A stretch of 64,000 nucleotides of DNA, from contig DASUHM010000044.1 in the NCBI GenBank assembly GCA_036273515.1, positions 384 to 64,383 of the forward strand, given 5' to 3'. The position numbers and the translations under genes are program-made. A model generated the notes under the pieces. That model was not told the DNA's origin and did not search any database. It saw nothing but the letters and a program-made list of their open reading frames with translations. This DNA comes from Gaiellales bacterium (lineage in GTDB: Bacteria; Actinomycetota; Thermoleophilia; Gaiellales; JAICJC01). Within the stretch, counting starts at the first letter, position 1, and the number at the start of each line of letters is the position of its first letter. Of the stretch, positions 6,436-64,000 are shown piece after piece.

Positions 6436-6900
6436 TCACCGGACCGCGACCACCTCGCAACCCCGGCGGGCGAATCCGGCGCCATGATCAGGGTCATGAA
6501 CGACCACATGGCATGGACATACCTCGTGCCGGCACGGCGGCCGGATCAGCCGCGGAGCCGGCGGGAGAGTGAGCGAGAACTGTTCCTCCGGCTCGCCCGT
6601 GAGCAGCGGCGAAAAAATCGCCGGACCTGGCGCGACCGCGTGCGCCTGGAAGAGGGGCGGCAGCGGAGCCGCTGAGATCGCGGCGTACGGAACGTGGTCA
6701 GCCTCCGGATGACCGGTGTTGATCGCCCGCGCTGAACGCCCCTTCGAGCCAGTCGGCATCGCCCAGGCGGGCAGCGAGCTGGACCAGGCGATCAACGAAT
6801 GCGATCCTTGACGAGGGGGAGGCGCTCGACGGCTCCACGGTGTTGAGGGCGGCGAACATCCAGGTGCCGCCGGCCGCCGAAGACCTCGACCCAGTGGTCC
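6436..6900 (-). pseudogene. glutathione S-transferase C-terminal-domain remnant (frameshifted, N-terminal domain missing)
   Basis: My own minus-strand translation gives 'TWMFAALNTVEPS...FVDRLVQLAARLGDADWLEGAFSAGD' in one frame, which is GST_C-like. A stop follows, and weaker similarity continues in the frame of ORF 6436..6927 ('PLFQAHA'). No thioredoxin-like N-domain is present, because the hydrolase gene abuts at 6906. Confidence 0.4.
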
Positions 6901-6905
6901 CGGTG

Positions 6906-7685
6906 CTACGCCGTCTCGCCGAGCCACTCGCGCAGCAGCGCGACGAGCTCGTCGAACGCGTCCCAGTAGACCATGTGGCCGGCCTCGAGACCGTGCACCG
7001 TCAGCCGGTCGCCGAGGTCGCGCCTGAGCGATTCGACCAGACCCTCACCCACCATGCCGTCATGGAGCGCCGGGACGAGCAGGAGCTCGCCCGCGAAGCC
7101 GGCCAGGGAGACCGGCGGCTCTGCCATCTCGCTCCAGGCCGCCACCACCGTCGACCGGCAGAACCGCAGCCGCCAGCGGCCGTCCTGGCCCTGCTCCAGC
7201 CCCTCCTCGAGATCGGCGTCCACGAACGGCAGCGCCTGGGCGGGGCGTCCCTCGCGCCGCGCGCGCACCGCCTCGTCACGCGTCGCCCAGCCCTCGTCGG
7301 CGCGCGTCTCCTCTCCCGCCTCGAACATCTCGTGCCCGTCCTGGTCGATCGCCGGGTCGAGCAGCACCACCCGCCGCACGCGCTCGGGCGCCGCCGCGGC
7401 GAGATGTGTGGCCAGCACCCCGCCGAAGCTGTGGCCGACGACATCGACCCGCTCGACGCCCTCTGCGTCCAGCGTCTCCAACAGGTCGGCCACATGCCGC
7501 CGGGCCGTCCAGGGCGCGTCCCAGGTCGACCGGCCGTGCCCGCGGAGATCCACTGCCAGCCAGCGGCGGTGCGGCAGGCCCCGTTCCGCCAGCGGGCGAT
7601 ACCGGCCCCCGTGACCGGTGACACCGTGCACCGCGAGCAGCGGTTCGCCGTCGAGCGAGCCGAACCGATGCAGGTTCAGGACCAC
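6906..7685 (-). CDS. alpha/beta-fold hydrolase
   Basis: 'HGVTGHG' oxyanion region and nucleophile elbow 'GHSFGG'. 259 aa, GTG start. Confidence 0.8.
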   Translation of the reverse strand: MVLNLHRFGSLDGEPLLAVHGVTGHGGRYRPLAERGLPHRRWLAVDLRGHGRSTWDAPWTARRHVADLLETLDAEGVERVDVVGHSFGGVLATHLAAAAPERVRRVVLLDPAIDQDGHEMFEAGEETRADEGWATRDEAVRARREGRPAQALPFVDADLEEGLEQGQDGRWRLRFCRSTVVAAWSEMAEPPVSLAGFAGELLLVPALHDGMVGEGLVESLRRDLGDRLTVHGLEAGHMVYWDAFDELVALLREWLGETA

Positions 7686-7708
7686 GATGGCAGCACCCTA
7701 CTCCGCCG

Positions 7709-23481: not shown

Positions 23482-24429
23482 TCAGGACGGAGGCTCGCTC
23501 GCGAGCGACTCCTCGGCGCGATGGCAGGCGGTCAGCCGGCCGTCGACCTCGCGCAGGACGGGCTCCTCCTGGCGGCAGCGGTCGATCGCCAGCGGGCAGC
23601 GGGGATGGAACCGGCAGCCGGCGGGCGGGTCGGCCGGATCGGGCGGGTCGGCCCGTTTCGTCTGCGGGCGGGGCAGCGTCTCGGAGAGCTCGGGCACCGC
23701 GGCCCGGAGCGCGCGGGTGTAGGGGTGCACCGGGCGGGTCAGCACCTTCGACGTCTCGCCGTGCTCGACCACCTTGCCGAGGTAGAGCACCGCAACCTGC
23801 TCGCAGAGCTGCTCGACGACCGCCAGGTTGTGCGAGATCAGGAGGTACGCCAGCGAGCGCTCCTCGCGCAGCCGCGAGATCAGCCCCAGGACGCGCGCCT
23901 GCACGGTCACGTCAAGCGCGCTCGTTGGCTCGTCGAGCACCAGCAGGCGCGGCTCGACCGCGAGCGCGCGGGCGATGGCCACACGCTGGCGCTGACCACC
24001 GGAGAGCTGATGGGGGAAGCGGTCGGCATGGTCTGCCTGCAGGCCGACCGAGGTGAGGAGCTCGCCGACGCGAATCGCGAGATGGGCGCGGTCGACGATC
24101 GCGTGCGCCCGCAAGGCCTCGGTGATGGCGGCGCCGACGCGCATCCGGGGATCGAGCGTCGAATCCGGATCCTGGAAGACGATCTGCACGCTCTTGCGAT
24201 ATGCCTTGAGCGCCGCCCGCCGGGCTCGGAACGCATCGACGCCGTCGACCGTGACCTCGCCCGCGCTGGGGGCGGTGAGGCGGACGACGGCGCGGCCGAT
24301 GGTCGTCTTGCCGGAGCCGCTCTCGCCGACCAGGCCGAGGCCGGCCGGTCCCGGCGGCACGCTCAGCGACACGCCGTCGACCGCGACGACGGGGCCGTAC
24401 CGCACGACCAGGTCGCGCACCTCAAGCAC
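23482..24429 (-). CDS. ABC transporter ATP-binding protein (OppF/DppF-like)
   Basis: Walker A 'GESGSGKTT', signature 'LSGGQRQRVAIARAL', Walker B 'LLVLDEPTS', and a C-terminal oligopeptide-type extension with Cys residues. Confidence 0.9.
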   Translation of the reverse strand: MLEVRDLVVRYGPVVAVDGVSLSVPPGPAGLGLVGESGSGKTTIGRAVVRLTAPSAGEVTVDGVDAFRARRAALKAYRKSVQIVFQDPDSTLDPRMRVGAAITEALRAHAIVDRAHLAIRVGELLTSVGLQADHADRFPHQLSGGQRQRVAIARALAVEPRLLVLDEPTSALDVTVQARVLGLISRLREERSLAYLLISHNLAVVEQLCEQVAVLYLGKVVEHGETSKVLTRPVHPYTRALRAAVPELSETLPRPQTKRADPPDPADPPAGCRFHPRCPLAIDRCRQEEPVLREVDGRLTACHRAEESLASEPPS

Positions 24430-25201
24430 CCGGCGGCTCCGGGCGGTTCAGGCGCGGCACCGCGGCCAGCAGCTCGCGCGTGTACGGATGCTCGGGGTGG
24501 CGCAGCGTCCGCCCGACGGGGCCGCGCTCGACGACCTGGCCGTCGTGCATGATCGCGACCGTGTCGCAGATCCCCGACACGACCGCCAGGTCGTGGCTGA
24601 TGAAGAGGGCGGCCAGCGACTCCTCGGAGCGCAGCTTCTGGAGCACCTCCAGGATCTCGGCCTGCACGGTGACGTCGAGCGCGCTGGTCGGCTCGTCGGC
24701 GATCAGCACCTCCGCCCGCAGCGCAACGGCAAGGGCGATCGCGACCCGCTGTGCCTGGCCGCCCGAGAGCTCGTGCGGGTAGCGGCGTAGGAGATCCGGC
24801 GAGAGCGCCACCGATCGCATCGCCGTGGCGGCCCGCTCGCGCGCCTGCGGCTTCGACGCGCCGTGCAGGCGCAGGGCGCGCAGGAACATGTCGCCCACCC
24901 GGAACACCGGGTTGAGCGACGAGATCGGGGCCTGGAAGATCATCGCGATCCGGCGCCCGCGGATGTCGCGCAGCTCGTGGTCGGAGAGCCCCAGGAGCTC
25001 CCGCCCCTCGAGCTTCACCGATCCCTCGACCCTCGCGCCCATGCCCGGCGCCAGCCCGGCGATCGCGTAGGCGGTCATCGACTTGCCGGAGCCGGTCTCG
25101 CCGACGATCCCGAGCATCTGGCCGCGGTCGAGGTCGAGCGCGTCGACGGCGACGACCTGGCGCTCGCCGAACCACACGCCCAGGTTGCGCACCTCGAGCA
25201 T
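24422..25201 (-). CDS. ABC transporter ATP-binding protein (OppD/DppD-like)
   Basis: Start ATG 25201 ('[11 protein letters not shown]') shares 1 nt with the upstream TGA. Walker A 'GETGSGKSM' and signature '[12 protein letters not shown]'. The track's longer N-terminus is an off-gene extension. Confidence 0.85.
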
Positions 25202-26070
25202 CACCGGCTGATCACCCGCCTGGGATCGAGCAGCTCGCGGACGCCGTCGCCGATCAGGTTGAAGGCGATCGCCGTGAACAGGATCGCCAGGCCGGCGAAC
25301 GTCACGAACCACCACTGCGTGGAGAAGTACTGGGCTCCCTGGCTCACGATCAGCCCCCACTCGGGAGTCGGATCCTGAGCCCCTAGCCCGAGGAACGAGA
25401 TGGACGCCGCCGTGAGCAGGATCCCGCCCGCGTCCATCGACATCTGCACCAGCACCGGGGTGATCGAGTTTGGCAGGACGTGCCGCAGCAGGATCCGCAC
25501 GGGCGAGACGCCCAGCGTGCGGCAGCTCTCGATGTAGGGCCGGGTGGCCACCGACGCGGCCTCGCCGCGCACGAGCCGCGTGTACCACGGCCACCAGGTC
25601 ACGGCGATCGCGATCGTCATGTTCGTGACGGAGGGCGTGAGCACGAAGGCGATGGCGAGCGAGAGCAGCAGGGCCGGGAACGCCAGGAACACGTCGGTGA
25701 TGCGCATGATCACCTGATCGACGTGGCCGCCGAAGTACCCGGCCGCGAGGCCGAGCGGGATGCCCACGAGGCCCGCGATCAGGAGCACCTCGACGACGAT
25801 CCGAAGCGAGATCCGGGCGCCGTACATGACGCGCGTGAGCAGGTCGCGGCCGACCAGGTCGGTGCCGAACGGATGCGCCGACGACGGCGCCTTGAGCACC
25901 TGGAAGGGGTGCGTCGCCGTGCCGGCGTCGGCCGGGTCGGGCGCCAGCCAGGGCGCGAGCAGCGCCGCCAGCACGATCAGCCCGAGCAGCACGACGCCCG
26001 CCACCAGCGTCGGATTGCGGCGGGCGAACCCGCGGCTGGGGACGATGCGGCCGATGGCGACGGCGGTCAC
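25201..26070 (-). CDS. ABC transporter permease (DppC/OppC-like)
   Basis: GTG 26070 overlaps the upstream stop (GTGA). 6 TM segments, with the C-terminal 'FNLIGDGVRELLDPR' typical of this family. Confidence 0.85.
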   Translation of the reverse strand: MTAVAIGRIVPSRGFARRNPTLVAGVVLLGLIVLAALLAPWLAPDPADAGTATHPFQVLKAPSSAHPFGTDLVGRDLLTRVMYGARISLRIVVEVLLIAGLVGIPLGLAAGYFGGHVDQVIMRITDVFLAFPALLLSLAIAFVLTPSVTNMTIAIAVTWWPWYTRLVRGEAASVATRPYIESCRTLGVSPVRILLRHVLPNSITPVLVQMSMDAGGILLTAASISFLGLGAQDPTPEWGLIVSQGAQYFSTQWWFVTFAGLAILFTAIAFNLIGDGVRELLDPRRVISR

Positions 26071-27083
26071 CGCAGCCGGATCCTCGGGTCGATGGCGGCC
26101 TGGGCGATGTCGACCAGCAGGTTGAGGACGACGTAGACGATCGCGACGATCAGGGTCACGCCGACGATGGCCGGCGTGTCGAGCGCCTGCAGCGAGTTGG
26201 CGGCGTAGCTGCCGAGCCCCGGCCAGTCGAACACCGCCTCGACCAGGAACGTGTTGGCGAGCGAGTACGCGAACACGAGCGCGGTCACCTGCACCACGGG
26301 ATTCATGGCCGGGCGCAGCGCCCACCGGCCGAAGATGGCGCGGTCGCCGAAGCCGAGCGACCGCGTCATCCGGATGTGGCTCTCGCCAAGCGTGTCGAGG
26401 ACCGACGCCCGCACCATCCGGGCCAGCAGCCCCGCCGGATACAGGGCGACCACCGCCGCCGGCAGGATGAGATGCGAGAGCGAGCTCTCGAGCACCGGCA
26501 GGTTGCCGGTTACCAGTGCGTCCACCGTCGGCATCTGCACGTAGCTCGTGAGCGGGCTCGTGTAGTAGAGGTTCGGGTCGTACGTCCCCGCCGCCGGCAG
26601 CCAGCCGAGCCGCTGGGCGAACACCAGCTGCAGGATCAGCGCCGCCCAGAACACCGGCATCGAGACGCCGATGACCGACACGACCCGGACGAGGAAGTCA
26701 GGCAGCTCCCCGTGGAAGCGCGCCGAGACGAGCCCCAGCGGCAGCCCGAGGAGGAGCGCGAGCAGCAGCCCCGCGGTCACCAGCTCGATCGAGGCGGGCA
26801 GCGCCGTCCGCAGGTCGGACAGCACCGGCCGCTTCGTGCGGTACGAGGTGCCCCAGTCGCCGGTCGCGATGCCCTTCAGGTAGTCGCCGAGCTGGACGAC
26901 CACCGGCTTGTCCAGCCCGAGCTGTTGCCGGGTGTGCTCGAGCTGGGACTTCGACGCTCGCGGCCCGGCATACGTCACGGCCGGATCGCCCGGGATGACC
27001 CGGGCGATCAGGAACGTGAGCACTACGACGCCGACAACGACGAGCACGCCAAGCGCAAGCCGTTCTCCGGCGTATCGGATCAT
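26067..27083 (-). CDS. ABC transporter permease (DppB/OppB-like)
   Basis: 'MIRYAGERLALGVLVVVGVVVLTFLIARVIPGDP' is the typical DppB N-terminus. ATGA overlap with the SBP stop. Confidence 0.9.
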   Translation of the reverse strand: MIRYAGERLALGVLVVVGVVVLTFLIARVIPGDPAVTYAGPRASKSQLEHTRQQLGLDKPVVVQLGDYLKGIATGDWGTSYRTKRPVLSDLRTALPASIELVTAGLLLALLLGLPLGLVSARFHGELPDFLVRVVSVIGVSMPVFWAALILQLVFAQRLGWLPAAGTYDPNLYYTSPLTSYVQMPTVDALVTGNLPVLESSLSHLILPAAVVALYPAGLLARMVRASVLDTLGESHIRMTRSLGFGDRAIFGRWALRPAMNPVVQVTALVFAYSLANTFLVEAVFDWPGLGSYAANSLQALDTPAIVGVTLIVAIVYVVLNLLVDIAQAAIDPRIRLR

Positions 27084-28705
27084 TGACCAGGCTTCAGGCT
27101 GTACACGAACACCACGCTCGGATAGGCCGGGTTGTCGACGTAGCCGCCGACCGACTTCTGCATCGCCCGCTCATACGTCTGCGTCCCCAGGAACAGCGAC
27201 GGCGAGTCCTTCAGAAGCGTCGTCTGGATCTGGCCGTAGAGGGTGATCGCCTGCGGGCGGTTGGTCGCCGACAGCGGCTCCACCTGGTCGATCTGCTTGT
27301 CGACCGTCGGGTTGTCGTAGTAGGCGAGGTTGAAGTACGGCGGGTTGGCCGAGTGGAACAGGTTGATGAACCACGAGTACGGATCCGGATAGTCGGGCCA
27401 CCAGTAGAACAGGAGGATGTCCTGGCGGCTGGCCGGGTTCGTCGACTTGGCCTTCGACCACTGCGTCGGCCAGGCCAGCGAGGCGACGTTCAGCTTGATG
27501 TTCAGCGGCGCGTACTCGGACTTGAGGAGCGCTGCCGCCGTCTGCTCGTACTGGTCGCCCTGGGTGTAGGTCAGGTTCAGCGTCATCGGCTTGCCGCCCG
27601 GCCCGTAGCCGGCCGACTGCAGCAGCTGCTTGGCCTTGGCCATGTTCGTCTGGTAGGCGGGCAGGTTCGGGTTGTAGCCCCAGAGGCCCTTCGGGATGAT
27701 CCCGATCGAGGGCGTGAACGCGCCCATCGCGGCCACGAGGCCCTTGTAGTCGGTGGCGTAGGCGAGCGCCTGCCGCACCTTGACGTTGGCCAGCGGGCCG
27801 TGCGACGTGTTCAGCATGCCGAACAGGTTCTGGTAGGAGCTGGCCGTGGTCGTGACGATGTTCGGGTCGCTCTTCAGCGAGTTCCACAGCTGCGGCGTCA
27901 TCTGCTCGGCCCATGTGATCTGGCCGTCGCGGACGAGCTGGGCCGTCGTGCTGGGCGTCGAGACGACCCGGAACACGACGTTGCGGTAGTGCGGGCCCGA
28001 CCAGCCGCCCCAGTAGCCGGGGAAGCTCTTCAGGCGCAGCTCGATCTCCTGGCCCTTGCTGTACTGGGCGACGGTGTACGGGCCGGTGCCCGCGTCGTGC
28101 CCCTGCGCGAACCACTTGGCGATCGGCGTCGAGCCGGAGGCCTTGGTGTCGTAGACGAACGCCGCGTAGCCGGCCGACGAGATGAGGTCGATCGGCGCCG
28201 GGTACTTGAGGTGGAAGACGACCGTCGTCGCGTTGGGCGCGGCGATCGACTTGACGGCGCCCCAGATGTAGGCGGCGCCCTGGTTCACGGTGATCGTGCG
28301 GTCGATCGACGCCTTCACGTCGGCGGCCGTCATGGGCTTGCCGTCGTGGAACTTCACGCCCTGGCGGATCGTGAACGTCCACGTCTTGGCGTCGGCGGAC
28401 TTCTTCCACGAGGTCGCGAGCAGCGGCTTGACCTGGCCCGTCTGGCTGTCGTAGCGGGTCAGCGTCTCGTACATGTTGTTCATCGCGATGATCTCGTTGG
28501 AGTAGTCGGTCGACGGATCCCAGCCGACCATCACCGGGGTGAACGCGCCGTAGGTGAACGTCGCGTTGACGGGGTTGCCGCCGGAGCTCGCGCCGGCCGG
28601 CTTCGACGTCGATCCGCAGGCGCTCGCGGCGAGCGCCACCACCGTCACGAAGGCCGTGACGGCCAGGCTCCATCGCAGGCGATGCGGGTGGTCAGCGGTG
28701 AACAC
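27080..28705 (-). CDS. ABC substrate-binding lipoprotein, family 5 (peptide/nickel/opine type)
   Basis: AAGGAGGA (28711-28718) precedes GTG 28705. Lipobox 'LAASAC'. 'ATSWKKSADAKTWTFTIRQGVKFHDGKPMTAADV' is the classic family-5 SBP signature region. Confidence 0.85.
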   Translation of the reverse strand: MFTADHPHRLRWSLAVTAFVTVVALAASACGSTSKPAGASSGGNPVNATFTYGAFTPVMVGWDPSTDYSNEIIAMNNMYETLTRYDSQTGQVKPLLATSWKKSADAKTWTFTIRQGVKFHDGKPMTAADVKASIDRTITVNQGAAYIWGAVKSIAAPNATTVVFHLKYPAPIDLISSAGYAAFVYDTKASGSTPIAKWFAQGHDAGTGPYTVAQYSKGQEIELRLKSFPGYWGGWSGPHYRNVVFRVVSTPSTTAQLVRDGQITWAEQMTPQLWNSLKSDPNIVTTTASSYQNLFGMLNTSHGPLANVKVRQALAYATDYKGLVAAMGAFTPSIGIIPKGLWGYNPNLPAYQTNMAKAKQLLQSAGYGPGGKPMTLNLTYTQGDQYEQTAAALLKSEYAPLNIKLNVASLAWPTQWSKAKSTNPASRQDILLFYWWPDYPDPYSWFINLFHSANPPYFNLAYYDNPTVDKQIDQVEPLSATNRPQAITLYGQIQTTLLKDSPSLFLGTQTYERAMQKSVGGYVDNPAYPSVVFVYSLKPGQ

Positions 28706-28716
28706 GATGATCCTCC

Positions 28717-30279
28717 TTAGTGGGCCCTCAGCCGTCCCGCCGCCTTGACGCGGACGCGGACGGCGGGCGTGGTCAGATATGCAAGAGGCAGCTCTTCGAG
28801 CGAGACGATCTCGACGCCGGCCGGATCCGCGCCGGCCCGCACCGCCTCGTCGTGTGCGGTCTGGCGGGCCTCGTCGAGCATCGCCGTGCGCCCGCCCGGC
28901 CCCTGGTGGTAGATGCGGTCGACCTGGCCGGACACCGAGGCGATGGCGGCGCCGATGGCGTTTGCGACGTCGTGGCTCTGCGGCCGCACGACCTCGCTGA
29001 TCCCGGGCAGGCGGTCGGGCACGAGCGCGCTGCCGCCGCCGACCACCACCAGCGGCGCCTCGCCGCGGGCGGTCTTGATCCGGTCGATGGCGTCGGCCAG
29101 CATCTCGTCGGAGCGGTGCATGGCCCGTTCCAGCTCGCCCCGCCGCGCGGCGGCCGGGCCCGGGTCTCCCAGCTCGAGGCGCCCGCACGCGACGGCTGCG
29201 TCGGTCAGCGTGGCGGTGCCGCCCCCGAACACGAGCGCCTGCTCGCGGAGGCGGTAGCCGACGCTGGCCGGCCCGACGCGCGGCACCGGCTCGGCGTCCT
29301 CGACGATGCTGCCGCCGCCGAGCGCGATCGCGACCAGGTCGGGCATGCGGAAGTTGGTGCGCACCCCGCCGACGTCGACGGCGGTGCTCGACTCGCGCGG
29401 GAAGCCGTTCACGAGCACGCCGACGTCGGTCGACGTGCCCCCGACGTCCGCGACGAGCGTGTCGGACGCCCCGGTCAGGTAGGCGGCGCCGCGGATGCTG
29501 TTGGCGGGACCGCTGCCGATCGTCAGCACCGGGTGGCGGACGGCGTAGTCGAGCGCCATCAGCGTGCCGTCGTTCTGCGCGAAGAAGATCACGGGCTCGA
29601 GGTCGTGCGCCGCGAGGGCCGACTCGAGCGCGATCGCGACGCCGCTCGCCACCGAGCGGAGCGCCGCGTTCATGACCGTGGCGTTCTCGCGCTCGAGCAG
29701 GCCGATCGAGCCGATCTCGTGGCTGAGCGACACCGGCAGGTCGCCCAGCTCCTCGCGGACGATCTCTGCGGCGGCCGCCTCGTGCGCGTCCGAGACCGAC
29801 GCGAACACGCTCGTCACCGCGACCGCCTCGGCCTGGCCGGCGACCTCCGCCAGGAACGCGCGCAGCTCGTCCCCGCCGAGCGGGACGATCTCGCGGCCGT
29901 CGAACTCGATCCCGCCGGGGACGATCGCCTCGCCGACGGAGACTGCGTCACGCAGATCCGCGGGCCAGTCGTAGAGCGGCGGGATCGACGTGGTCGACGG
30001 CGATCCGATCCGCACCACCGCCACCCGCTCCAGGCGCGATCGCTCGAGCACCGCGTTGGTGGCATGCGTCGTCCCGAGCATGACGTGGCCGATCCGGACC
30101 GGGTCGACGGTCGGTTCGGCGAGGACGGCGTTCAGGGCGGCGGTGATGCCGCCGGTGACGTCGGGGGTCGTCGGCCGCTTGGCCTTCGCCACCAGCGCGC
30201 CCTGCCGGTCGAGCACCGCCGCGTCGGTGTTCGTGCCGCCGACGTCGATCCCCAGGCGCAGGTCGGGCCCGCCGCTCAC
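28717..30279 (-). CDS. hydantoinase/oxoprolinase-family protein (HyuA-like ASKHA fold, 520-aa type that pairs with DUF917)
   Basis: 'LRLGIDVGGTNTDAAVLD' phosphate-1 motif, with a second ASKHA motif 'VADVGGTSTDVGV'. The GTG start overlaps the DUF917 stop (GTGA). Confidence 0.8.
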   Translation of the reverse strand: MSGGPDLRLGIDVGGTNTDAAVLDRQGALVAKAKRPTTPDVTGGITAALNAVLAEPTVDPVRIGHVMLGTTHATNAVLERSRLERVAVVRIGSPSTTSIPPLYDWPADLRDAVSVGEAIVPGGIEFDGREIVPLGGDELRAFLAEVAGQAEAVAVTSVFASVSDAHEAAAAEIVREELGDLPVSLSHEIGSIGLLERENATVMNAALRSVASGVAIALESALAAHDLEPVIFFAQNDGTLMALDYAVRHPVLTIGSGPANSIRGAAYLTGASDTLVADVGGTSTDVGVLVNGFPRESSTAVDVGGVRTNFRMPDLVAIALGGGSIVEDAEPVPRVGPASVGYRLREQALVFGGGTATLTDAAVACGRLELGDPGPAAARRGELERAMHRSDEMLADAIDRIKTARGEAPLVVVGGGSALVPDRLPGISEVVRPQSHDVANAIGAAIASVSGQVDRIYHQGPGGRTAMLDEARQTAHDEAVRAGADPAGVEIVSLEELPLAYLTTPAVRVRVKAAGRLRAH

Positions 30280-31310
30280 GCCGCCAGATCCTCGATCGGG
30301 ATGTAGTCGAAGTCGTATCCGAAGGAGCGCGGGCCGGCCAGCGCAAGCCCCCGCGGGCTGCGCCAGATCGGGTCGCAGGGGAACGCGACCACGGCGACCC
30401 GCTGTCCGTAGCGGAGGCGCTCGGTGTGGATGGCCTCCGCCGTCTCGCTGTCGAGCACGGTGATGATGTCGGGCACGGAGGCCAGCACCCGATCGCCGTC
30501 CAGCGCGACGAGGTTCTCGTTCTGGATCTCGAGCACGACGGTGCGGCCGCGGTGCTCTCCGAGGCCGCCGACCTCCACCCGGCCGCGGACGAACCCGCCC
30601 GTGACGCGGCGCTCGACGTCGGTCAGCTTGCCGGTGACGAGGACGCGCGCCCCGACGGTCGCGCGCAGGGCGTCGAGCGGCTCGTCGGCCGCGGCCATCG
30701 CCTCGCCGATGCGGATCGCCAGGGTCACCGAGTCACGCACGGTGGCGGTGCGCGCCTCCGCCGCCGTCAGGGAGTACTCGGTGCCCGACGCGCGTCCGCC
30801 GAACTCGACCGAGAGGGTGCGCTCGATCCGCTCCATCCAGGCGCCGTCGGCGGCGGTGATGGCCAGCCGGTTGCCGCGCTCGTCGGCCAGCACCGCCGGC
30901 GAGGCGCTGATCCCGGCGATCTCCATCGTCACCTGGGGGATCTCGGGGAAGGCCCGGCCCATCCCGTCGGCGTCGACGACCGGCAGACCGATGTGGGCGG
31001 CCCAGTTGATCGGCTGCATCCCGTTGGCGCCGCCGATCTCGCCCGCCATCAGGGCGGCGACCCGTCCCCCGCGCGCCTGCTCGAGCCCGTCGCGGAGCCA
31101 GCCGCCCTCCTCGCCGGTGCCGAGCTTCTCGATCGAGACGACCGGCGCCCCGATGCCGCCGCAGGGCATGATCAGGGCGTCGTCGGGCAGGTTGTCGACG
31201 TCGACGAGCCCGACCGGCCCGAATCGCTCGATCGCGTGGCGGGCCGCCAGCAGGCTGGTGTAGGTGTCGCCGCCGCCGCCGGCCCCCAGCACGGAACAGC
31301 CCCGGGCCAT
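30276..31310 (-). CDS. DUF917-family protein
   Basis: 'LGAGGGGDTY' and 'VVDADGMGRAFPE' are DUF917 hallmarks as I recall them. The family-like sequence 'ITRIDVEHLAP' continues in-frame upstream of ATG 31310, so the true start is probably a non-ATG/GTG codon near 31355. Confidence 0.75.
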   Translation of the reverse strand: MARGCSVLGAGGGGDTYTSLLAARHAIERFGPVGLVDVDNLPDDALIMPCGGIGAPVVSIEKLGTGEEGGWLRDGLEQARGGRVAALMAGEIGGANGMQPINWAAHIGLPVVDADGMGRAFPEIPQVTMEIAGISASPAVLADERGNRLAITAADGAWMERIERTLSVEFGGRASGTEYSLTAAEARTATVRDSVTLAIRIGEAMAAADEPLDALRATVGARVLVTGKLTDVERRVTGGFVRGRVEVGGLGEHRGRTVVLEIQNENLVALDGDRVLASVPDIITVLDSETAEAIHTERLRYGQRVAVVAFPCDPIWRSPRGLALAGPRSFGYDFDYIPIEDLAA

Positions 31311-31351
31311 CGGGGCGAGATGTTCGACGTCGATGCGGGTGATGCGCCCGC

Positions 31352-33085
31352 TCAGGGCTCGCCCTCGACTGCGTGCGGGAAGTGGCGGCTGACGTACGCC
31401 TCGGACAGGTAGCCGTCGCGCAGGTCACGGCGCACCGCCTCCGGGTCGCGCTCGGAAGGGGGGCCGTACCCGCCTCCACCGCCGGTGTGGAGATGGACGG
31501 TCGCCCCCTTCGGCACCTTCAGCCGGGTGACCTTCGAGTAGCGGGTGCGCGTCCCGTCGGGGAGCTCCACCTCGACCGAGTTGGGACGGGCCTCGCCGCC
31601 CCCCTCGAGTCCCCACGGGGCGTTCTTCGTGCGCTCGACCGCCGAGGTCAGCCAGGCGTCCTCGAGCATGTGGAACGAGAGGTCGAGCCCGAGGCCGCCG
31701 CGCTCGCGGCCCGGCCCGCACGAGTCCTGGGCGAGCTCGACCCGCTCCAGGAGCCAGGGGTTCTTCGCCTCCCACACCTCGATCGGCGTGCACCGGGTCG
31801 AGGCCTCGGACACGTGCATCAGGCTGCTGGCGCCGTCTCCGTGCATCGAGGCGCCCTGGCCGATCGGGTGCGGCGCGCCGTCCGTCCACGGCTCGCCCGT
31901 CCCCTCGCGCGTGCCCCACCAGACGAGCGCGCAGATGTCGCCGCCGCTGCACGCCGGGACGGCCGTCGGCAGCGCCTGGCCCACCGCCTGGTAGATCGCC
32001 TCGATCGACTGGTCGCCGATCCAGCCGTACAGGAAGCAGGGTGCGGGATGCAGCGGATGGAACACCGTTCCGGGGCGGGTGACGATCTCGATCGGGCGGA
32101 AGTGGCCCTCGTTGGGCGCGGTGCCGCCGCCGGCCAGCATCGAGATTGCGATGCGGCTCGCCGACACCGTCGAGGGCAGCGGGCAGTTGATCGGCCCCTC
32201 CTGCTGCGGCGGGCCGTCCGAGAAGTCCAGGCGCACGCCCTCGGGCGAGATGTCGACCGTCACCTGGAACGGCACCGGGTCGTCGGTGACGCCGTTCGAG
32301 TCCATCTCGCCCCGGCCGATGTAGCGCCCTTGCGGCAGTCGCGCGAACCACTCCTTGACCAGCGCCTCGCCGTGGTCGTACATGGCCGCCACCGCCTCGT
32401 CGAAGCGCTCGAGCCCGTACCGCTCGACGACCCGCACGAGACCCGCGGCGCCGGTGCGGACGCCGACCACGGTGGCGTTGATGTCGCCCGCCACCATCTT
32501 CGGCACGCGCGAGTTGGCGGTGGCGAAGCGGAAGATGTCCGAGACCAGGCGGCCGCGCGAGAAGAGCTTGACGCCGGGGAAGATGGTGCCTTCCTGGAAG
32601 ACGTCGACCGTATCGGTCGAGTAGGGCTCCTTCCCGCCGATGTCGAGCCAGTGGGCCTTGATCGCGGCGTACCCGACCAGGTCGCCCGCCGGCAGGAAGA
32701 CCGGCATCACCATGGCCGCGTCCTGCGGGTGCGAGCCGGTGCCGAACGGGTCGTTGTAGAGGATGATGTCGCCCGGCTCGAGCGCCTGCTCGCCGCCCAC
32801 GGCGTCGATCGCGCCGCGCACGCAGAAGCTCATCGTGCCCATGAAGACCGGCAGCGTCGGTGCCTGCGCGAGCAGGCAGATGTCGCGGTCGTAGAGCGCC
32901 GCGGCGAAGTCGAGCACCTCGTAGATGACCGGCGAGAACGACGTGCGGACGAGCGCGCGCTTCATCTGGTCGGCCGCCGCGTTCAGGCCCTGGCGGACGA
33001 TCTCGGTCGTGATCGGATCGGCGTCGGCGGTGCCGCTCGTGCGCCCTGCGCCCGCCCGCGAGATGACGGTGTCTGCGGCGCTCAT
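31352..33085 (-). CDS. hyuB: hydantoinase B / oxoprolinase subunit (HyuB family)
   Basis: 'DPITTEIVRQGLNAAADQMKRALVRTSFSPVIYEVLDFAAALYD' is the canonical HyuB N-terminus. ATGA overlap with the hyuA stop. Confidence 0.9.
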   Translation of the reverse strand: MSAADTVISRAGAGRTSGTADADPITTEIVRQGLNAAADQMKRALVRTSFSPVIYEVLDFAAALYDRDICLLAQAPTLPVFMGTMSFCVRGAIDAVGGEQALEPGDIILYNDPFGTGSHPQDAAMVMPVFLPAGDLVGYAAIKAHWLDIGGKEPYSTDTVDVFQEGTIFPGVKLFSRGRLVSDIFRFATANSRVPKMVAGDINATVVGVRTGAAGLVRVVERYGLERFDEAVAAMYDHGEALVKEWFARLPQGRYIGRGEMDSNGVTDDPVPFQVTVDISPEGVRLDFSDGPPQQEGPINCPLPSTVSASRIAISMLAGGGTAPNEGHFRPIEIVTRPGTVFHPLHPAPCFLYGWIGDQSIEAIYQAVGQALPTAVPACSGGDICALVWWGTREGTGEPWTDGAPHPIGQGASMHGDGASSLMHVSEASTRCTPIEVWEAKNPWLLERVELAQDSCGPGRERGGLGLDLSFHMLEDAWLTSAVERTKNAPWGLEGGGEARPNSVEVELPDGTRTRYSKVTRLKVPKGATVHLHTGGGGGYGPPSERDPEAVRRDLRDGYLSEAYVSRHFPHAVEGEP

Positions 33086-35127
33086 GCGTCACCGCCCCGG
33101 TCGATCATGAGCGCGCCGCTTCGGTGCACCGTCGCCCTGAAGCCGCGATCGACGTAGGTGGTCGTCGTCTGCTCGCGCACGATCGCGGGCCCGTCGACCG
33201 TCGCGCCGGGCGCGAGGTGGGAGCGGTCGATCACGGCGAACGCGACCAGCTCGCCGCCGGTGAACGACCACGCCTGCACCGTCTCGTTCGCGGCGGCGCC
33301 GTCGCCGTTTCTCGAGGCCACCGAGGGCGGCACCGGGCTGTACTCGAGCGGCGTGGTCGCAAGCGCGCGCACGCACACGATCTCGAGCTCCTCGTCGAGG
33401 ATGGAGCCGAACGTCCGCTCGTACTCGTCCAGAAAGCGCTCGGCCACCGGCTCGGGGTCGCCCTCGACGGCGCCTCCGGGCGCCGGCACCGGGACGGTCA
33501 GCGTGTGCTCTTGCCCGACGAACCGGATGTCCATGTGCACCTCCCGCACGCTCCGCCCGGGCTCGCCCGAGCCGCGCGCGTCGAGCTCTCCGAACAGCTG
33601 CTCCGCGATGGCGCCGGCCTCGGTCAGCCCGTCGGCCGAAAGCCGGGTGACGCGCGTGCGCGAGACGCTGCGGGCGAGGTCGGCGCCGAGCAGGCCGACC
33701 GCCGAGAAGTTGCCGGCGTACGGGGGGACGACGACCGTGCTGACGCCGAGCTCGTCGGCCAGCACGGTGCCGAAGAGCGGCCCGGCGCCGCCGAAGGCGA
33801 CGAGCGTCGCCTCCCGCGGGTCGCGGCCGCGCTCGATGGTGACGCTGCGGATCGCGTCGGCCATCTGCGCGGCGACGATGCGGATCACGCCGCAGGCGAC
33901 CTCGGTGACCGAGCCGAGCCCGAGCGGCTCGGCCAGGCGGCCGAGCGCGCGCTCGGCCAGCTCGAGCACGAGCGGCACGTCGCCCGCGATCTGGGCGGCC
34001 GGGATCATCCCCAGCGCCAGCGCCGCGTCGGTCACCGTCGCGTGCTCGCCGCCACGGTCGTAGCAGGCCGGTCCCGGGTCGGCGCCCGCGCTCTGCGGAC
34101 CGACGCGGAGCAGGCCGCCGGAGTCGACGTAGGCGATCGAGCCGCCACCGGCGCCGATCGAGCGGACGTCGATCCACGGCGTCTGGATGGGAAGGCCGAC
34201 GACCTCGCCCTGGTACAGCACCGGCGGGCGGCCGTCGTCGATCAGGCAGGTGTCGAAGCTGGTGCCGCCGACATCGGCGGCGATCGCATGGCGCAGGTCG
34301 AGCTCGCGCGCCAGGTCGGCGACGGCCCGCGCGCCGGCGACCGGGCCGGAGAGGATCGTCTCGAACGGCCGCCCGGACGCCTCGCCGAACGTCATCGCGC
34401 CGCCGCCCGAGCGCATGATCATGCATCCGCCCGTGAATCCCTTGCCGCCCAGGCCGCCCTCGACGCGGCCGAGGTAGTCGCCGAGGCGGCGGCGGACGAA
34501 GGCGTCGATCACCGTCGTGCAGGTGCGCTCGTACTCGCGGTACTCGCCCGACACCTGGTGCGACAGCGAGATGTCGCCGGCGAAGCCCGCATCGCGCAGC
34601 AGCCGCTCGGCCTCGAGCTCGTGCGCCGGGTTGGCGTACGCGTTCATGAAGGCGATCGCCACCGCATCCACCCCGTGCTCGATGAAGCGGGCGGCGGCCG
34701 CGGTCACGTCGGCCGGATCGAGCGCGACATGCTCCGCGCCGTCCGCGCGGATGCGCCCGCGGACGGGGATCCGCAGGTGGCGCTCGACCATGGGCGGCGG
34801 TGCCCGCCAGAACAGGTCGTACGGATCGCCGCGGTCTCCCCGGCGTACCTCGAGGACGTCGCGAAAGCCGCTCGTGCACAAGAGGCCCACCAGCGCCCCG
34901 CGGCTCTCGAGAAGCGCGTTCAACCCGACGGTCGTTCCGTGCAGGAAGTACTCCGAGGCGGCCACGTCGCCCGTCGCCAGCACCGAGTCGAGCACGCCCA
35001 GCACGCCCTCGTCGGGCGCGTCGGGGACGGTGGGCACCTTGCCGATCACGATCCGCCCGGTGCCCTCGTCGCTGAGCACGAGATCGGTGAACGTGCCGCC
35101 GACGTCGACTGCGATCCTGTTTGGCAT
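33082..35127 (-). CDS. hyuA: hydantoinase A / oxoprolinase subunit (HyuA family)
   Basis: Start ATG 35127 ('MPNRIAVDVGGTFTDLVL'). The internal 'AADVGGTSFDTCLI' is the second ASKHA motif. Confidence 0.9.
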   Translation of the reverse strand: MPNRIAVDVGGTFTDLVLSDEGTGRIVIGKVPTVPDAPDEGVLGVLDSVLATGDVAASEYFLHGTTVGLNALLESRGALVGLLCTSGFRDVLEVRRGDRGDPYDLFWRAPPPMVERHLRIPVRGRIRADGAEHVALDPADVTAAAARFIEHGVDAVAIAFMNAYANPAHELEAERLLRDAGFAGDISLSHQVSGEYREYERTCTTVIDAFVRRRLGDYLGRVEGGLGGKGFTGGCMIMRSGGGAMTFGEASGRPFETILSGPVAGARAVADLARELDLRHAIAADVGGTSFDTCLIDDGRPPVLYQGEVVGLPIQTPWIDVRSIGAGGGSIAYVDSGGLLRVGPQSAGADPGPACYDRGGEHATVTDAALALGMIPAAQIAGDVPLVLELAERALGRLAEPLGLGSVTEVACGVIRIVAAQMADAIRSVTIERGRDPREATLVAFGGAGPLFGTVLADELGVSTVVVPPYAGNFSAVGLLGADLARSVSRTRVTRLSADGLTEAGAIAEQLFGELDARGSGEPGRSVREVHMDIRFVGQEHTLTVPVPAPGGAVEGDPEPVAERFLDEYERTFGSILDEELEIVCVRALATTPLEYSPVPPSVASRNGDGAAANETVQAWSFTGGELVAFAVIDRSHLAPGATVDGPAIVREQTTTTYVDRGFRATVHRSGALMIDRGGDA

Positions 35128-35214
35128 GCCGCCACTCTGACGCGCCGCCATGGCCGCGGTCAATGTGCCGCGAGACCAACATGCGGCGAGTTGTTGTGTC
35201 CCTGACATGATGGC

Positions 35215-36435
35215 GTGGTGCGACTCGACGACGTGCTGCGCAAGGATCCGCGCCTCGACCTGACCCTGGTCGCCGGCCCCTGGGACGCGCGCACGGTCGA
35301 GGGCGTCAGCCTGGCCGATGAGACGACACGGGTCGCACGCGCGCGCCGCGGGGAGGTCGTGGTGCTCACCCGGCGGGCCTCGCGCAGCGCCTCAGGACGC
35401 GGGCTGACCGAGCTGCTCACCGTCGCCGGCGAGCGCGAGGTGGCGGCGCTCGCGCTGTACGGGCGGGCGACGACATCGCAGGCCGTCATCGCCACGGCGA
35501 GCGGCGCCCGCGTCGCCCTGCTCGCGATCGGGCTCGGCGAGGATCCGGCCGCGCTCGTGGCCACGCTCGAGGAGGTGCTCCGCGCCGACGCCGATGCCGT
35601 GCTGCTGCGGCTGGCGGCCGCGGCGACCGCGATCGAGCATGCGGAGCCGGAAGGCGCCGAGGCGATCCTGATCGCGGCGTCGGCGGCGCTCGACGCGCAG
35701 GTGAGCGTCCGCAACGGCGTCGTGGTCGCGGACCGGCAGGATACGGCGACTCGCATCGGCTGCCGGCTCGTCGCCGACGCCCTCGCGCGCGCCGGCGCCC
35801 AGGCCGAGCCGCCGGCCGTGGGGTCGGTGGTCGTCGTCCTCGAGCCCCTCGGGCGCGACGGCGGCGACCTCGTCATGCTGGAGGCGCTGCGGGCCGCCCG
35901 CGCCGCCGGATGGCACGCCGCCCGCGAGGGCGCGTCGGTGCGCCTGCGGGGCAACGGCGACGGCGCCCGGGTGGCGGCCGCGGTGATCGACCGGCTGCCG
36001 GTGCGGGTCGTCTGCGGCGTCGGCCGTGATGCCGGCGAGGCCCGGACGGCACTCGCGCGGGCGCGCGCGAGCGGCGCGTGGGACGTTCCCTTCCCCTTCG
36101 ACGCCGCGGATCCCGACGGACTCGTACGGGAGCTCGCCGGCTCGCCGGCGGGCCAGGCATCGGCGGCGGGCCTGCTGGCGCCGCTCGCGAAGCTCGGCGA
36201 GGCCAAGGCTGCAACCGCGATCGAGACCCTCCGGGTCTACCTCGACTGCTGGGGCTCGCTCTCGCGCAGCGGCGCCATCCTCCACCTGCACCCGAACGCC
36301 GTCGCGCACCGGATGAGGCGGATCCGCGCCCTGCTCCCGGCCGACCTCGACGACCCCGACCAGCGGCTGGCGCTGCAGATCGCCTGCCGGGCGTGGAGCG
36401 GCGGTCAGGCCACGGGCCCGGCGGACGCGCCGTAG
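35215..36435 (+). CDS. PucR/CdaR-family transcriptional regulator
   Basis: C-terminal PucR-type HTH 'TLRVYLDCWGSLSRSGAILHLHPNAVAHRMRRIRALL'. Divergent from hyuA across an 87-bp intergenic region. Confidence 0.8.
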   Translation: MVRLDDVLRKDPRLDLTLVAGPWDARTVEGVSLADETTRVARARRGEVVVLTRRASRSASGRGLTELLTVAGEREVAALALYGRATTSQAVIATASGARVALLAIGLGEDPAALVATLEEVLRADADAVLLRLAAAATAIEHAEPEGAEAILIAASAALDAQVSVRNGVVVADRQDTATRIGCRLVADALARAGAQAEPPAVGSVVVVLEPLGRDGGDLVMLEALRAARAAGWHAAREGASVRLRGNGDGARVAAAVIDRLPVRVVCGVGRDAGEARTALARARASGAWDVPFPFDAADPDGLVRELAGSPAGQASAAGLLAPLAKLGEAKAATAIETLRVYLDCWGSLSRSGAILHLHPNAVAHRMRRIRALLPADLDDPDQRLALQIACRAWSGGQATGPADAP

Positions 36436-37362
36436 TCAGGCGACCCCGAGCATCTTCCGGAGCAGGGCGCCGAGCTCATCCAGGGCGTGGCGGCCGCCCA
36501 CGGCGCCCGCGATGCGGTCATCGATCTCGGCCAGAGCGCCGCGCGCATGCTCGAGCGCGGCCGTTCCCTGTGCGGTCGGGGCGATGATGTAGGAGCGGCG
36601 GTCGAGCGCGTTCTGGCGGCGTTCGGCCAGACCGTGCTCCTCGAGCGCGTCGACCAGCTCGACGATGATCGTGCCGCTCACCCCGAGCTCGCGCGCGAGC
36701 GACTGCTGCGACCCAGGTGTGTGGGCGCAGATGGCGAGAGCGCCGAAGTGGCGAGCCTGGATCCCGAGCGGTTCGAGCGCGCGCTCGAACTCCGTTCGCA
36801 GGCGTAGGTGCGAGCGGGCGAGCAGGAACCCGGGTCGGTCCATCAGCGACGTCGGTGGCCCGGTGTCGTCGAAGCCGGCGAGCAGCCCTTGCAGCAGCTC
36901 GTTCAGACGCGCCCGCTCGTCCATGGACAGACGCCCCAGGAACGCACCTTCGCACTCGCGCAGGACCGGGCCGAAACGGGCCAGGGCCTCCGTTCCGGTC
37001 GGCGTCACGACCAGCTGGTAGGCACGCCGGTCGGCCGGGTCGCGCCGCCGCTCGACGAGCCCCTTCGCCTCGAGGGCGTCGACGATGCCGACCATGGTGG
37101 TCCGGCCCAGGTCGAGCCGTGCGCCCAGCTCGCCCTGCGAGATCGGCCCATCGTCGATCGCACGTAGGACGACCAGCAGCCGCGGGTGCAGCTCGCCGCG
37201 GAGCGCGGCGACCGCGGTCCGCTGCGCGTGCATGAACGCTGCGAAGACCAGGAACCCCACGTGCGGGGCGAGGGCGGGCGGTACCCGCGTCGGCCCCTCG
37301 ACCCCGCTCTCCGGCCCGGCAAATGATCCATACCCAGGATTATCAACCTTGTTGACGTTCAT
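36436..37362 (-). CDS. tandem (two-domain) MarR-family transcriptional regulator
   Basis: Two complete MarR winged-helix units in one 308-aa chain: 'ISQGELGARLDLGRTTMVGIVDALEAKGLVERRRDPADRRAY' and 'GSQQSLARELGVSGTIIVELVDALEEHGLAERRQNALDRRSY'. Start ATG 37362. The upstream 376 codons of the track ORF are an antisense shadow of the MMPL gene. Confidence 0.8.
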   Translation of the reverse strand: MNVNKVDNPGYGSFAGPESGVEGPTRVPPALAPHVGFLVFAAFMHAQRTAVAALRGELHPRLLVVLRAIDDGPISQGELGARLDLGRTTMVGIVDALEAKGLVERRRDPADRRAYQLVVTPTGTEALARFGPVLRECEGAFLGRLSMDERARLNELLQGLLAGFDDTGPPTSLMDRPGFLLARSHLRLRTEFERALEPLGIQARHFGALAICAHTPGSQQSLARELGVSGTIIVELVDALEEHGLAERRQNALDRRSYIIAPTAQGTAALEHARGALAEIDDRIAGAVGGRHALDELGALLRKMLGVA

Positions 37363-37389
37363 ACTGGCTGATGGTAGTCTACGCGACTC

Positions 37390-63800: not shown

Positions 63801-64000
63801 GCTAGGCGTAGCTGCGCTCGACGAAGCGCCCGCGGCCGGGCGCCACGTGCAGCTCCCCGTCGGCGACCAGCACCTCGCCGCGGCCGATCGTGACAACCGG
63901 GAAGCCGACGACCTCGACGCCCTCGTACGTTGAGTGGTCGATGTTCGAGTGCAGGTTCGTGTGGGAGAGCGTCACCCGCCGCTCGGGATCGAAGACGACC
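63801..64000 (-). CDS. dihydropyrimidinase / D-hydantoinase, C-terminal fragment (gene continues beyond the window)
   Basis: My own translation of the minus strand reads '...VVFDPERRVTLSHTNLHSNIDHSTYEGVEVVGFPVVTIGRGEVLVADGELHVAPGRGRFVERSYA*'. This is the typical C-terminus of cyclic amidohydrolases. It is absent from the ORF track because no start lies in the window. Confidence 0.7.

Follow-up and report, generated by a model that had tools for sequence, protein, structure and literature searches.

We describe a compact operon of nine translationally coupled genes in a stretch of 64,000 nucleotides (nt) from a Gaiellales bacterium (assembly GCA_036273515.1, contig DASUHM010000044.1, about 71% G+C; the whole stretch is called the window below). 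The nine open reading frames (ORFs), all on the minus strand (23482-35127), encode the hydantoinase subunits HyuA and HyuB, a DUF917 protein, a second HyuA-like ATPase of the ASKHA type (520 amino acids, aa) and a five-component ATP-binding cassette (ABC) importer, while the gene of a PucR-type regulator runs divergently on the plus strand (35215-36435); strands and domains were confirmed with Pfam. With moderate confidence, we read this locus as a substrate-inducible catabolic operon that would supply nitrogen and carbon from a small cyclic amide or ureide. At its centre, the DUF917 protein and the 520-aa HyuA-like protein are predicted to form a functional pair, that is, one enzyme, because their genes are translationally coupled, nearly always adjacent and naturally fused in other genomes.

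The compactness of the operon can be read directly from the junctions. The hyuA and hyuB genes share an ATGA overlap (33085-33082) and the DUF917 and HyuA-like genes a GTGA overlap (30279-30276). The stop codon of the HyuA-like gene (TAA, 28719-28717) lies within an AAGGAGG sequence that is followed 6 nt on by the GTG start of the binding-protein gene (28705), leaving a gap of 11 nt. Further overlaps join the binding protein to permease B (ATGA, 27083-27080), permease B to permease C (GTGA, 26070-26067), permease C to ATPase D (4 nt or 1 nt within GTGATG, 25204-25199, depending on the start chosen) and ATPase D to ATPase F (8 nt, 24429-24422, identical in the relatives L002 and L003). Seven of the eight junctions had been given as overlaps or very small gaps in an earlier, first-pass annotation of this DNA, and all seven proved correct. 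The G+C content at third codon positions is 0.90-0.96 in the nine ORFs, and a terminator scan of the minus strand found no terminator-like site inside the operon. The same gene order and overlaps recur in relatives with protein identities of 62-95% and different flanking genes, so that a mere chance succession of ORFs can be dismissed. Scans of the window for Rfam families and tRNA genes were empty, so the operon appears to have no riboswitch or leader RNA.

To place the operon in a wider context, we collected 80 species-level loci from metagenome-assembled genomes (MAGs) around DUF917 homologues of 58-93% identity, and located the ten window proteins in them by tblastn. Of the 73 loci with enough sequence for the partner to be counted, 70 have a HyuA-like gene downstream of DUF917 and on its strand, and in 62 the two genes are direct neighbours. 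An exhaustive HMMER search for DUF917 proteins (2,207 clusters at 50% identity, E <= 1e-10) also contains, among its best 150, five fusions of a HyuA-like protein with DUF917, 916-1007 aa long (P0220, P0233, P0240, P0251 and P0266). In these, Hydant_A_N and Hydantoinase_A at the N-terminus are followed by both DUF917 domains at the C-terminus, and two truncated proteins are built alike. They are the counterpart of the HyuA::HyuB fusions represented by eukaryotic 5-oxoprolinase and the 1288-aa N-methylhydantoinase 7hk5. Coupling, adjacency and fusions thus bear out the pairing of DUF917 with the 520-aa ASKHA protein that the first-pass annotation had proposed. One further protein (P0270, 759 aa) combines a weak N-terminal match to Transp_cyt_pur (NCS1) with a C-terminal DUF917; it is a fusion of transporter and enzyme or else an artefact of gene calling.

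The pair is found far beyond the relatives of the window. DUF917 stands beside a hydantoinase/oxoprolinase family protein of about 515 aa and a transporter in all seven annotated plasmids or chromids opened, the carriers including Haloferax volcanii (pHV3), Limosilactobacillus oris, Peribacillus, a Streptomycetaceae plasmid, Aureimonas and Mesorhizobium japonicum (pMLa). The transporter is an NCS1 'cytosine permease' in L. oris and Peribacillus and a five-component ABC system in Haloferax and Mesorhizobium, and the minimal lactobacillus plasmid cassettes consist of just permease, DUF917 and HyuA-like genes. DUF917 also occurs with a cytosine permease in Listeria, and in published lists, which give no function, L. 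rhamnosus and C. difficile have the pair together with a permease, while E. limosum has a PucR-family gene beside DUF917. As in the window, then, these cassettes of Bacillota, Proteobacteria and Haloferax hold the pair beside a transporter, but many have an NCS1 permease instead of an ABC system and none of the seven inspected carries HyuAB. The DUF917 and HyuA-like half of the operon is a widespread annotated cassette, uncharacterised in the searchable literature, and its combination with HyuAB is clade-specific, while the HyuAB half, the importer and the regulator are ordinary members of known families.

Two of these cassettes are arranged in ways of their own. On pHV3 (L088, NC_013964.1 82704-93370), a five-component ABC importer is followed by DUF917, the HyuA-like gene and two more DUF917 genes, all overlapping; H. 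volcanii is a genetically tractable carrier. On the Streptomycetaceae plasmid (L090, CP108401.1 182310-190580), an NCS1 permease, HyuA-like and DUF917 genes precede an OsmC gene, a pyridoxal phosphate-dependent gene of the cysteine-synthase family and a second, divergent DUF917 (34% identity). This locus may be a sulphur-releasing (desulfurase-type) variant.

Closer to the window, a full five-component ABC importer follows the pair in 53 of the 62 loci informative downstream. The nearest genomes are MAGs of uncultured Actinomycetota/Gaiellales from soil (DUF917 identity 88-93%), an identical 7-kb contig (L001) exists in an ENA metagenome, and no cultured relative with the nine-gene set was found in the collections searched. 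HyuAB is much less constant than the importer. Among 62 loci informative for these two genes, orthologues with at least 55% identity stand upstream in 10, all belonging to the window's own Gaiellales/Solirubrobacteraceae-type clade; 17 carry a different HyuAB paralogue, 39-42% and 36-37% identical to the window's proteins, and 35 have no HyuAB upstream. Three architectures can be distinguished on this basis. In type A, that of the window, PucR stands before HyuAB, and the pair and the importer come next; in type B, the HyuAB paralogue and PucR stand before DUF917, which in some loci is separated by an insert from the HyuA-like gene, and the importer comes last; type C has PucR, pair and importer only. 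The co-occurrence that the first-pass annotation had suggested checking is recurrent for DUF917, the HyuA-like gene and the importer, but not for HyuAB orthologues. Judging from these loci, the conserved unit is PucR, DUF917, the 520-aa HyuA-like protein and a five-component Dpp-type importer, and the nine-gene set is not the evolutionary unit; HyuAB appears to have been recruited beside this core twice independently, from different paralogues.

The importer has the composition of the Dpp/Opp/Nik type (PepT family), with a family-5 substrate-binding protein (SBP_bac_5, E 5e-84) that bears a signal peptide with a ...LAASAC lipobox, two BPD_transp_1 permeases and two oligo_HPY ATPases, although oligo_HPY is matched only in part in the D subunit (25.5 bits against a cut-off of 27.1). 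Importer-specific NCBIfam cut-offs (DppA, NikA, GsiB, OppA, CntA) are all missed, the best scores being 152 of 393 bits for NikA and 129 of 1005 for DppA. The binding protein finds DppA, AgaA and NikA in the PDB at similar scores (1e-31 for AgaA, 6hlx), and in the alignment to 1dpp it keeps Asp408 (WWPDYPDP) and has Gly aligned with Arg355, two residues that we take to be ligand contacts of DppA. Such comparisons do not seem to settle the ligand. The binding protein and permeases score best, below the cut-offs, against NikA/NikB/DppA-type models, as would be expected of a generic peptide or nickel importer that merely lies by unrelated enzyme genes and shares no substrate with them. We regard this as highly unlikely given the retention of the importer after the enzyme pair in most loci, the presence of the same five-component type with the pair in Haloferax and Mesorhizobium, and the overlapping junctions.

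The DUF917 protein contains both domains of the family (PF06032 and PF20906, 167.7 and 217.2 bits, both above the gathering score). The first-pass annotation had described the role of DUF917 as poorly defined, which is true in part, but Pfam has since renamed the family S-Me-THD. Its best NCBIfam models are S-methyl thiohydantoin desulfurase (NF058532, 100.8 bits against a cut-off of 450) and thiohydantoin desulfurase (NF058529, 81.3 against 440); with both cut-offs missed, the protein is placed by its sequence in the S-Me-THD family, outside the characterised desulfurase subfamilies. Going by their NCBIfam names, the characterised enzymes hydrolyse the C2-SH or C2-SCH3 group of thiohydantoins, a reaction of ergothioneine catabolism. 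In a set of 11 homologues that ranges from Archaea to Actinomycetota (34-45% identity), a GxGGGG loop, E76, E83, ExGGxN (106-111), LPxxDxDGxGRAxP (124-137), E175, R179, R249 and E280 are invariant, and the cysteines are not. An AlphaFold2 model (pLDDT 79, pTM 0.82) matches only 2o3i in the PDB with Foldseek, a structural-genomics protein of unknown function. We considered DUF917 as a structural analogue of HyuB and rejected the idea, as nothing HyuB-like was matched.

These relationships might point to a (thio)hydantoin pathway resembling ergothioneine catabolism, in which DUF917 alone would be an ATP-independent hydrolase or desulfurase of a hydantoin-type ring, HyuAB an N-methylhydantoinase-like ring opener and the 520-aa protein separate or accessory. 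The identity of the best NCBIfam models speaks for it, as do the closeness of HyuA and HyuB to the N-methylhydantoinase 7hk5, the position of the second DUF917 of the Streptomycetaceae plasmid near cysteine-synthase-family and OsmC genes, and the NCS1 hydantoin/cytosine-type permeases found with the pair in Firmicutes. We nevertheless think it unlikely. The scores of 101 and 81 bits are far under the cut-offs, no ergothionase, thiourocanate hydratase or carbamoylase is found among the annotated genes from 19955 to 49990, and the fusions and near-universal adjacency tie the 520-aa ATPase to DUF917. The window's DUF917 thus shares with the thiohydantoin desulfurases both Pfam domains and the acidic and glycine-rich motifs, and the chemistry proposed below is alike in form, but it is coupled to an ASKHA ATPase (and elsewhere fused to one) and to a transporter, with no ergothioneine-pathway genes nearby.

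HyuA and HyuB belong to better charted territory. All Pfam scores exceed the gathering scores (HyuA: Hydant_A_N 155, Hydantoinase_A 294 and Hydant_A_C 23 bits; HyuB: Hydantoinase_B 505 bits, E 3.5e-151), and the closest solved structures are the N-methylhydantoinase 7hk5 (1e-103 for HyuA, 2e-72 for HyuB) and caprolactamase (6yra, 2e-96, and 6yra_B, 7e-46). The length of 681 aa given by the hyuA start agrees with that of the homologue in L002. In caprolactamase, the ATP motifs of CapA are DxGGTxTD, DxGGT and GxxPGP, and CapB holds an Asp-His-Asp-His metal tetrad (PMC8453981). The window's HyuA has VDVGGTFTD (phosphate-1), ADVGGTS (phosphate-2) and GADPGP (adenosine), and D59, H119, D122 and H145 of HyuB align with the CapB ligands D41, H99, D102 and H124. 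With the ATP motifs present and the tetrad kept, HyuA and HyuB look catalytically competent. Compared with 7hk5, CapAB (6yra) and 5-oxoprolinase, they have all family domains, the ATP motifs and the metal tetrad, but they stay below the caprolactamase equivalogs NF050156 and NF050157 (CapA 451.5 and CapB 208.1 bits, cut-off 1000 bits), and as no equivalog cut-off is reached, the models assign them no substrate.

HyuA also matches the acetophenone carboxylase models ApcC and ApcA (246 and 171 bits, NCBIfam), and Apc has two different HyuA-like subunits (5l9w matches; excerpt of PMC5214803), so that the four enzyme proteins of the operon could be imagined as one ATP-dependent carboxylase of the Apc/acetone carboxylase kind acting on a ketone. 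Such an enzyme is highly unlikely here: HyuB resembles the B subunits of hydantoinases and lactamases far more than it does ApcD or the alpha subunit of acetone carboxylase, 35 of the 62 loci hold the DUF917 pair with no HyuAB at all, and a peptide-type importer with a PucR regulator suits the catabolism of nitrogen compounds better.

The 520-aa partner of DUF917 shares with HyuA of the HyuA/HyuB hydrolases the two N-terminal domains (Hydant_A_N and the first 178 positions of Hydantoinase_A) and both phosphate motifs (IDVGGTNTD and ADVGGTSTD), but it is without the HyuA C-terminal domain, and the place of HyuB in this second module is taken by DUF917, with its unrelated fold. The pair had been described as an ATP-dependent ring-opening module; the pairing stands, whereas DUF917 is not HyuB-like, and both ATP dependence and ring opening are what we infer by analogy.

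The catabolic reading would work as follows. The PucR-type regulator would sense the substrate and control the 87-nt bidirectional promoter region, the family-5 lipoprotein and the DppBCDF-like ABC system would import the compound, and two ATP-driven enzymes would act on it in the cytoplasm. The core enzyme would be the two-subunit complex of HyuA-like ATPase and DUF917, which is kept wherever the importer is kept. If it works like HyuA/HyuB, oxoprolinase and caprolactamase, its ASKHA subunit would phosphorylate the lactim oxygen of a ring carbonyl; a two-site phospho-lactim mechanism has been described for HyuA/HyuB-type enzymes (PMC8453981). DUF917, a fold rich in acidic residues, would then add water and expel the leaving group, whereupon the ring opens. 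A phospho-lactim would be a natural counterpart of the substrates of thiohydantoin desulfurases, since the reaction of these is formally identical, only that their substrate comes with a leaving group in place. The canonical HyuAB would be a lineage-specific addition, acting on a related ring or on a second amide bond. Housekeeping enzymes would take over the products, a linear dipeptide or an amino-acid derivative; the product should be a common metabolite because the operon encodes no enzyme for later steps and its flanking genes vary among relatives.

That the substrate cannot be named from the sequence, as the first-pass annotation had stated, agrees with our results, in which none of the ten proteins reached an NCBIfam equivalog cut-off and the binding protein was indecisive. 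Our best guess for the substrates is cyclic dipeptides, with hydantoin-like rings next. Cyclic dipeptides are suggested by the peptide-type importer, by a product manageable for housekeeping peptidases, and by genes for cyclodipeptide oxidase (CDO) and racemase in relatives. The unfavourable energetics of opening a ring of this kind, usually cited to explain why oxoprolinase consumes ATP, also speak for them. Four type B loci (L044, L067, L078 and L083) have a DUF6092 gene (CDOB) and a nitroreductase gene (CDOA) inserted between DUF917 and the HyuA-like gene (Table 1), and Asp/Glu/hydantoin racemase genes occur in L044, L061 and L067. These inserts match the reported enrichment of DUF917, hydantoin racemases and Dpp/Opp-type transporters in CDO clusters that are not associated with cyclodipeptide synthase (CDPS), as given in excerpts of an AlbAB filament study (PMC11055893); in those excerpts DUF917 is a putative stand-alone hydantoinase and no HyuA-like partner is described. 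Unlike the relatives with inserts, the window has neither a CDO nor a racemase gene; tblastn with CDOA and CDOB of L067 gave no match in it.

CDO enzymes are known from biosynthetic clusters and ATP-dependent enzymes are able to drive ring closure, so an anabolic or salvage cassette might also be envisaged, in which a linear precursor is taken up and ATP is used to cyclise or modify it, giving for example a modified cyclic dipeptide with the CDO of relatives. We judge this very unlikely, as no CDPS, nonribosomal peptide synthetase or export gene lies beside the operon, PucR-type regulators and importers are typical of catabolic operons, and the minimal lactobacillus cassettes contain permease, DUF917 and HyuA-like genes only.

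Hydantoin- or nucleobase-like rings, for their part, are suggested by the NCS1 permeases of Firmicutes, the thiohydantoin relatives of DUF917 and the closeness of HyuAB to N-methylhydantoinase. Opine lactams have a precedent in Agrobacterium, where a family-5 importer is combined with HyuAB. The HyuA/HyuB-like pair of the aga region is presumably AgaF/AgaG, and we take that region to lack a DUF917 pair and PucR and to have an oxidase or asparaginase gene after the ring opener. Lactam opening by hydantoinase/oxoprolinase A and B has been proposed for opine catabolism (PMC6733357). The aga region and the succinamopine region of pTiEU6 resemble the window in having a family-5 importer and a HyuA/HyuB pair thought to open a lactam. 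Against this, the opine regions named in PMC6733357 have an oxidase or asparaginase gene after the ring opener and no mention of a DUF917 pair or PucR, and AgaA is no nearer relative of the window's binding protein than DppA.

The most specific form of our proposal, put forward tentatively and with low confidence, is that the HyuA-like protein and DUF917 constitute a class of ATP-dependent hydrolases of cyclic amides that has so far gone unrecognised, with DUF917 in place of HyuB and 2,5-diketopiperazines as the natural substrates. The operon and its relatives would then be a long-missing bacterial pathway of diketopiperazine catabolism in which ATP drives the unfavourable opening.

Several points weigh against the catabolic, ring-opening reading. 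The GxxPGP adenosine motif is unrecognisable on inspection of the 520-aa HyuA-like sequence, the predicted structure of DUF917 resembles neither HyuB nor any known hydrolase, and the named DUF917 desulfurases, to our knowledge, use neither ATP nor a HyuA-like partner. The Firmicute cassettes carry NCS1 cytosine/hydantoin permeases, pointing to nucleobase- or hydantoin-like substrates. A need for two ring-opening enzymes is left unexplained, and the single transcription unit is itself inferred from sequence. Finally, the searchable literature on DUF917, on thiohydantoin desulfurase and on diketopiperazine with hydantoinase/oxoprolinase yielded no paper characterising the pair or the nine-gene set; prior biochemical characterisation for a known substrate, which the first-pass annotation had named as a check on novelty, was accordingly not found.

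The start of the DUF917 gene deserves comment, as it concerns the one junction, hyuB/DUF917, that was left out of the earlier list. The first ATG, GTG or TTG of the frame is the ATG at 31310, 41 nt past the hyuB stop, and gene callers annotate the resulting 344-aa form. The frame is open further upstream, where a CTG (31355-31353) overlaps the hyuB TGA as CTGA. Relatives of 83-89% identity start at the equivalent position with GTG or ATG (VSERITRIEIEHLAPLARG, compared with LSGRITRIDVEHLAPMARG in the window), and the CTG is common to the window, the identical metagenome contig and two further species-level MAGs (L004 and L005). Among these CTG carriers, the 15 codons before the ATG show four synonymous and two conservative changes, so that they are kept at the amino-acid level, and a GAGGG Shine-Dalgarno-like element precedes the CTG, with none similar before the ATG. 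Since the GTG or ATG starts of relatives align with it, the upstream codons are conserved and GAGGG precedes it, DUF917 probably starts at CTG 31355 by coupled re-initiation.

The regulator contains HTH_30 (E 3e-19, 68.9 bits), and a PucR-type gene occupies the same divergent position in related loci. GGDEF_2 and PucR N-terminal domains were not detected by Pfam in the window's protein, whereas the regulators of related loci, which are longer, have them. Together with the junctions and the family-5 importer, the Pfam assignments bear out the compact operon with divergent PucR-type regulator and importer recognised in the first-pass annotation. On the minus strand, the control region contains TTGACC (35163-35158) and, after a spacer of 18 nt, CAGAGT (35139-35134), whose end is 6 nt from the hyuA ATG; this distance suggests that the set is a promoter for a leaderless hyuA mRNA. 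Ten relatives keep the length of the control region (86-90 nt) along with the motifs CACATTGA, GTCAGAGT, TATGTC and CACAA, and the promoter-like motifs come solely from this comparison of 11 sequences. A strict scan for sigma-70 consensus promoters gave no matches between 23000 and 36600. On the other side, a CATGAT element stops 3 nt short of the pucR GTG, and both divergent mRNAs, hyuA and pucR, may be leaderless.

Table 1. Features of the operon in the window, and CDO gene inserts in four related loci.
Feature	Position	Strand	Product length or extent	Domains or content
pucR-type regulator	35215-36435	+	406 aa	HTH_30
Divergent control region	35128-35214		87 nt	between hyuA and pucR
hyuA	33082-35127	-	681 aa	Hydant_A_N, Hydantoinase_A, Hydant_A_C
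hyuB	31352-33085	-	577 aa	Hydantoinase_B
DUF917 gene	30276-31355 (CTG start) or 30276-31310 (ATG start)	-	359 aa or 344 aa	S-Me-THD_N, S-Me-THD_C
HyuA-like ASKHA ATPase	28717-30279	-	520 aa	Hydant_A_N, partial Hydantoinase_A
Family-5 substrate-binding lipoprotein	27080-28705	-	541 aa	SBP_bac_5
DppB/NikB-like permease	26067-27083	-	338 aa	BPD_transp_1_N, BPD_transp_1
DppC/NikC-like permease	25201-26070	-	289 aa	OppC_N, BPD_transp_1
DppD/OppD-like ATPase	24422-25204	-	259-260 aa	ABC_tran, partial oligo_HPY
DppF/OppF-like ATPase (last gene of the operon)	23482-24429	-	315 aa	ABC_tran, oligo_HPY
CDO insert, L044	7271-8147			CDOB, CDOA
CDO insert, L067	11043-11961			CDOB, CDOA
CDO insert, L083	8059-8950			CDOB, CDOA
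CDO insert, L078	about 6863-7700			CDOB, CDOA

The main value of the operon lies in the entry point it offers to an unassigned enzyme class, possibly one of diketopiperazine catabolism, a field in which the degrading enzymes are largely unknown (excerpt of PMC3852281). The DUF917 and HyuA-like pair spans the Archaea and at least three bacterial phyla (Bacillota, Proteobacteria and Actinomycetota) with no reaction assigned to it, and its reaction, once known, would annotate thousands of genes. The window provides a well-defined test case, in which the genes are coupled, importer and regulator are dedicated and HyuAB serves as a canonical internal comparison, and the link to CDO clusters supplies a concrete panel of substrates. 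A solution could show how soil and gut microbes use cyclic dipeptides or hydantoin-like compounds, and the pair could provide new ATP-driven lactamases for biocatalysis.

The genes around the operon were considered as clues to the pathway and rejected, as the phosphoesterase, tandem MarR, MMPL and other genes are unrelated to it and not conserved beside it in relatives. The gene that converges on the operon (21051-23477, plus strand) encodes a secreted protein of 808 aa, which combines fibronectin-III repeats with a domain of the Phosphoesterase family (PF04185). The stop of this gene at 23477 lies 4 nt from that of the last ABC ATPase, with no terminator-like hairpin between them. On the other side, within 36436-39555, a minus-strand gene for a regulator with two MarR domains in 332 aa ends base-to-base with the pucR stop (36435/36436), and an MMPL-family transporter gene (37390-39555) diverges from it. 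The fragment of D-hydantoinase/dihydropyrimidinase that the first-pass annotation noted at the window edge is real (63802-63999, minus strand; C-terminal 65 residues, E 8e-12 to 4tqt). It was rejected as a member of the pathway and is not linked to the operon, from which about 27 kb with unrelated genes separate it. Its neighbours are a cupin gene, a MarR gene, an Exo_endo_phos-family (endonuclease/exonuclease/phosphatase) gene and an ECF-type sigma factor gene with a SnoaL domain.

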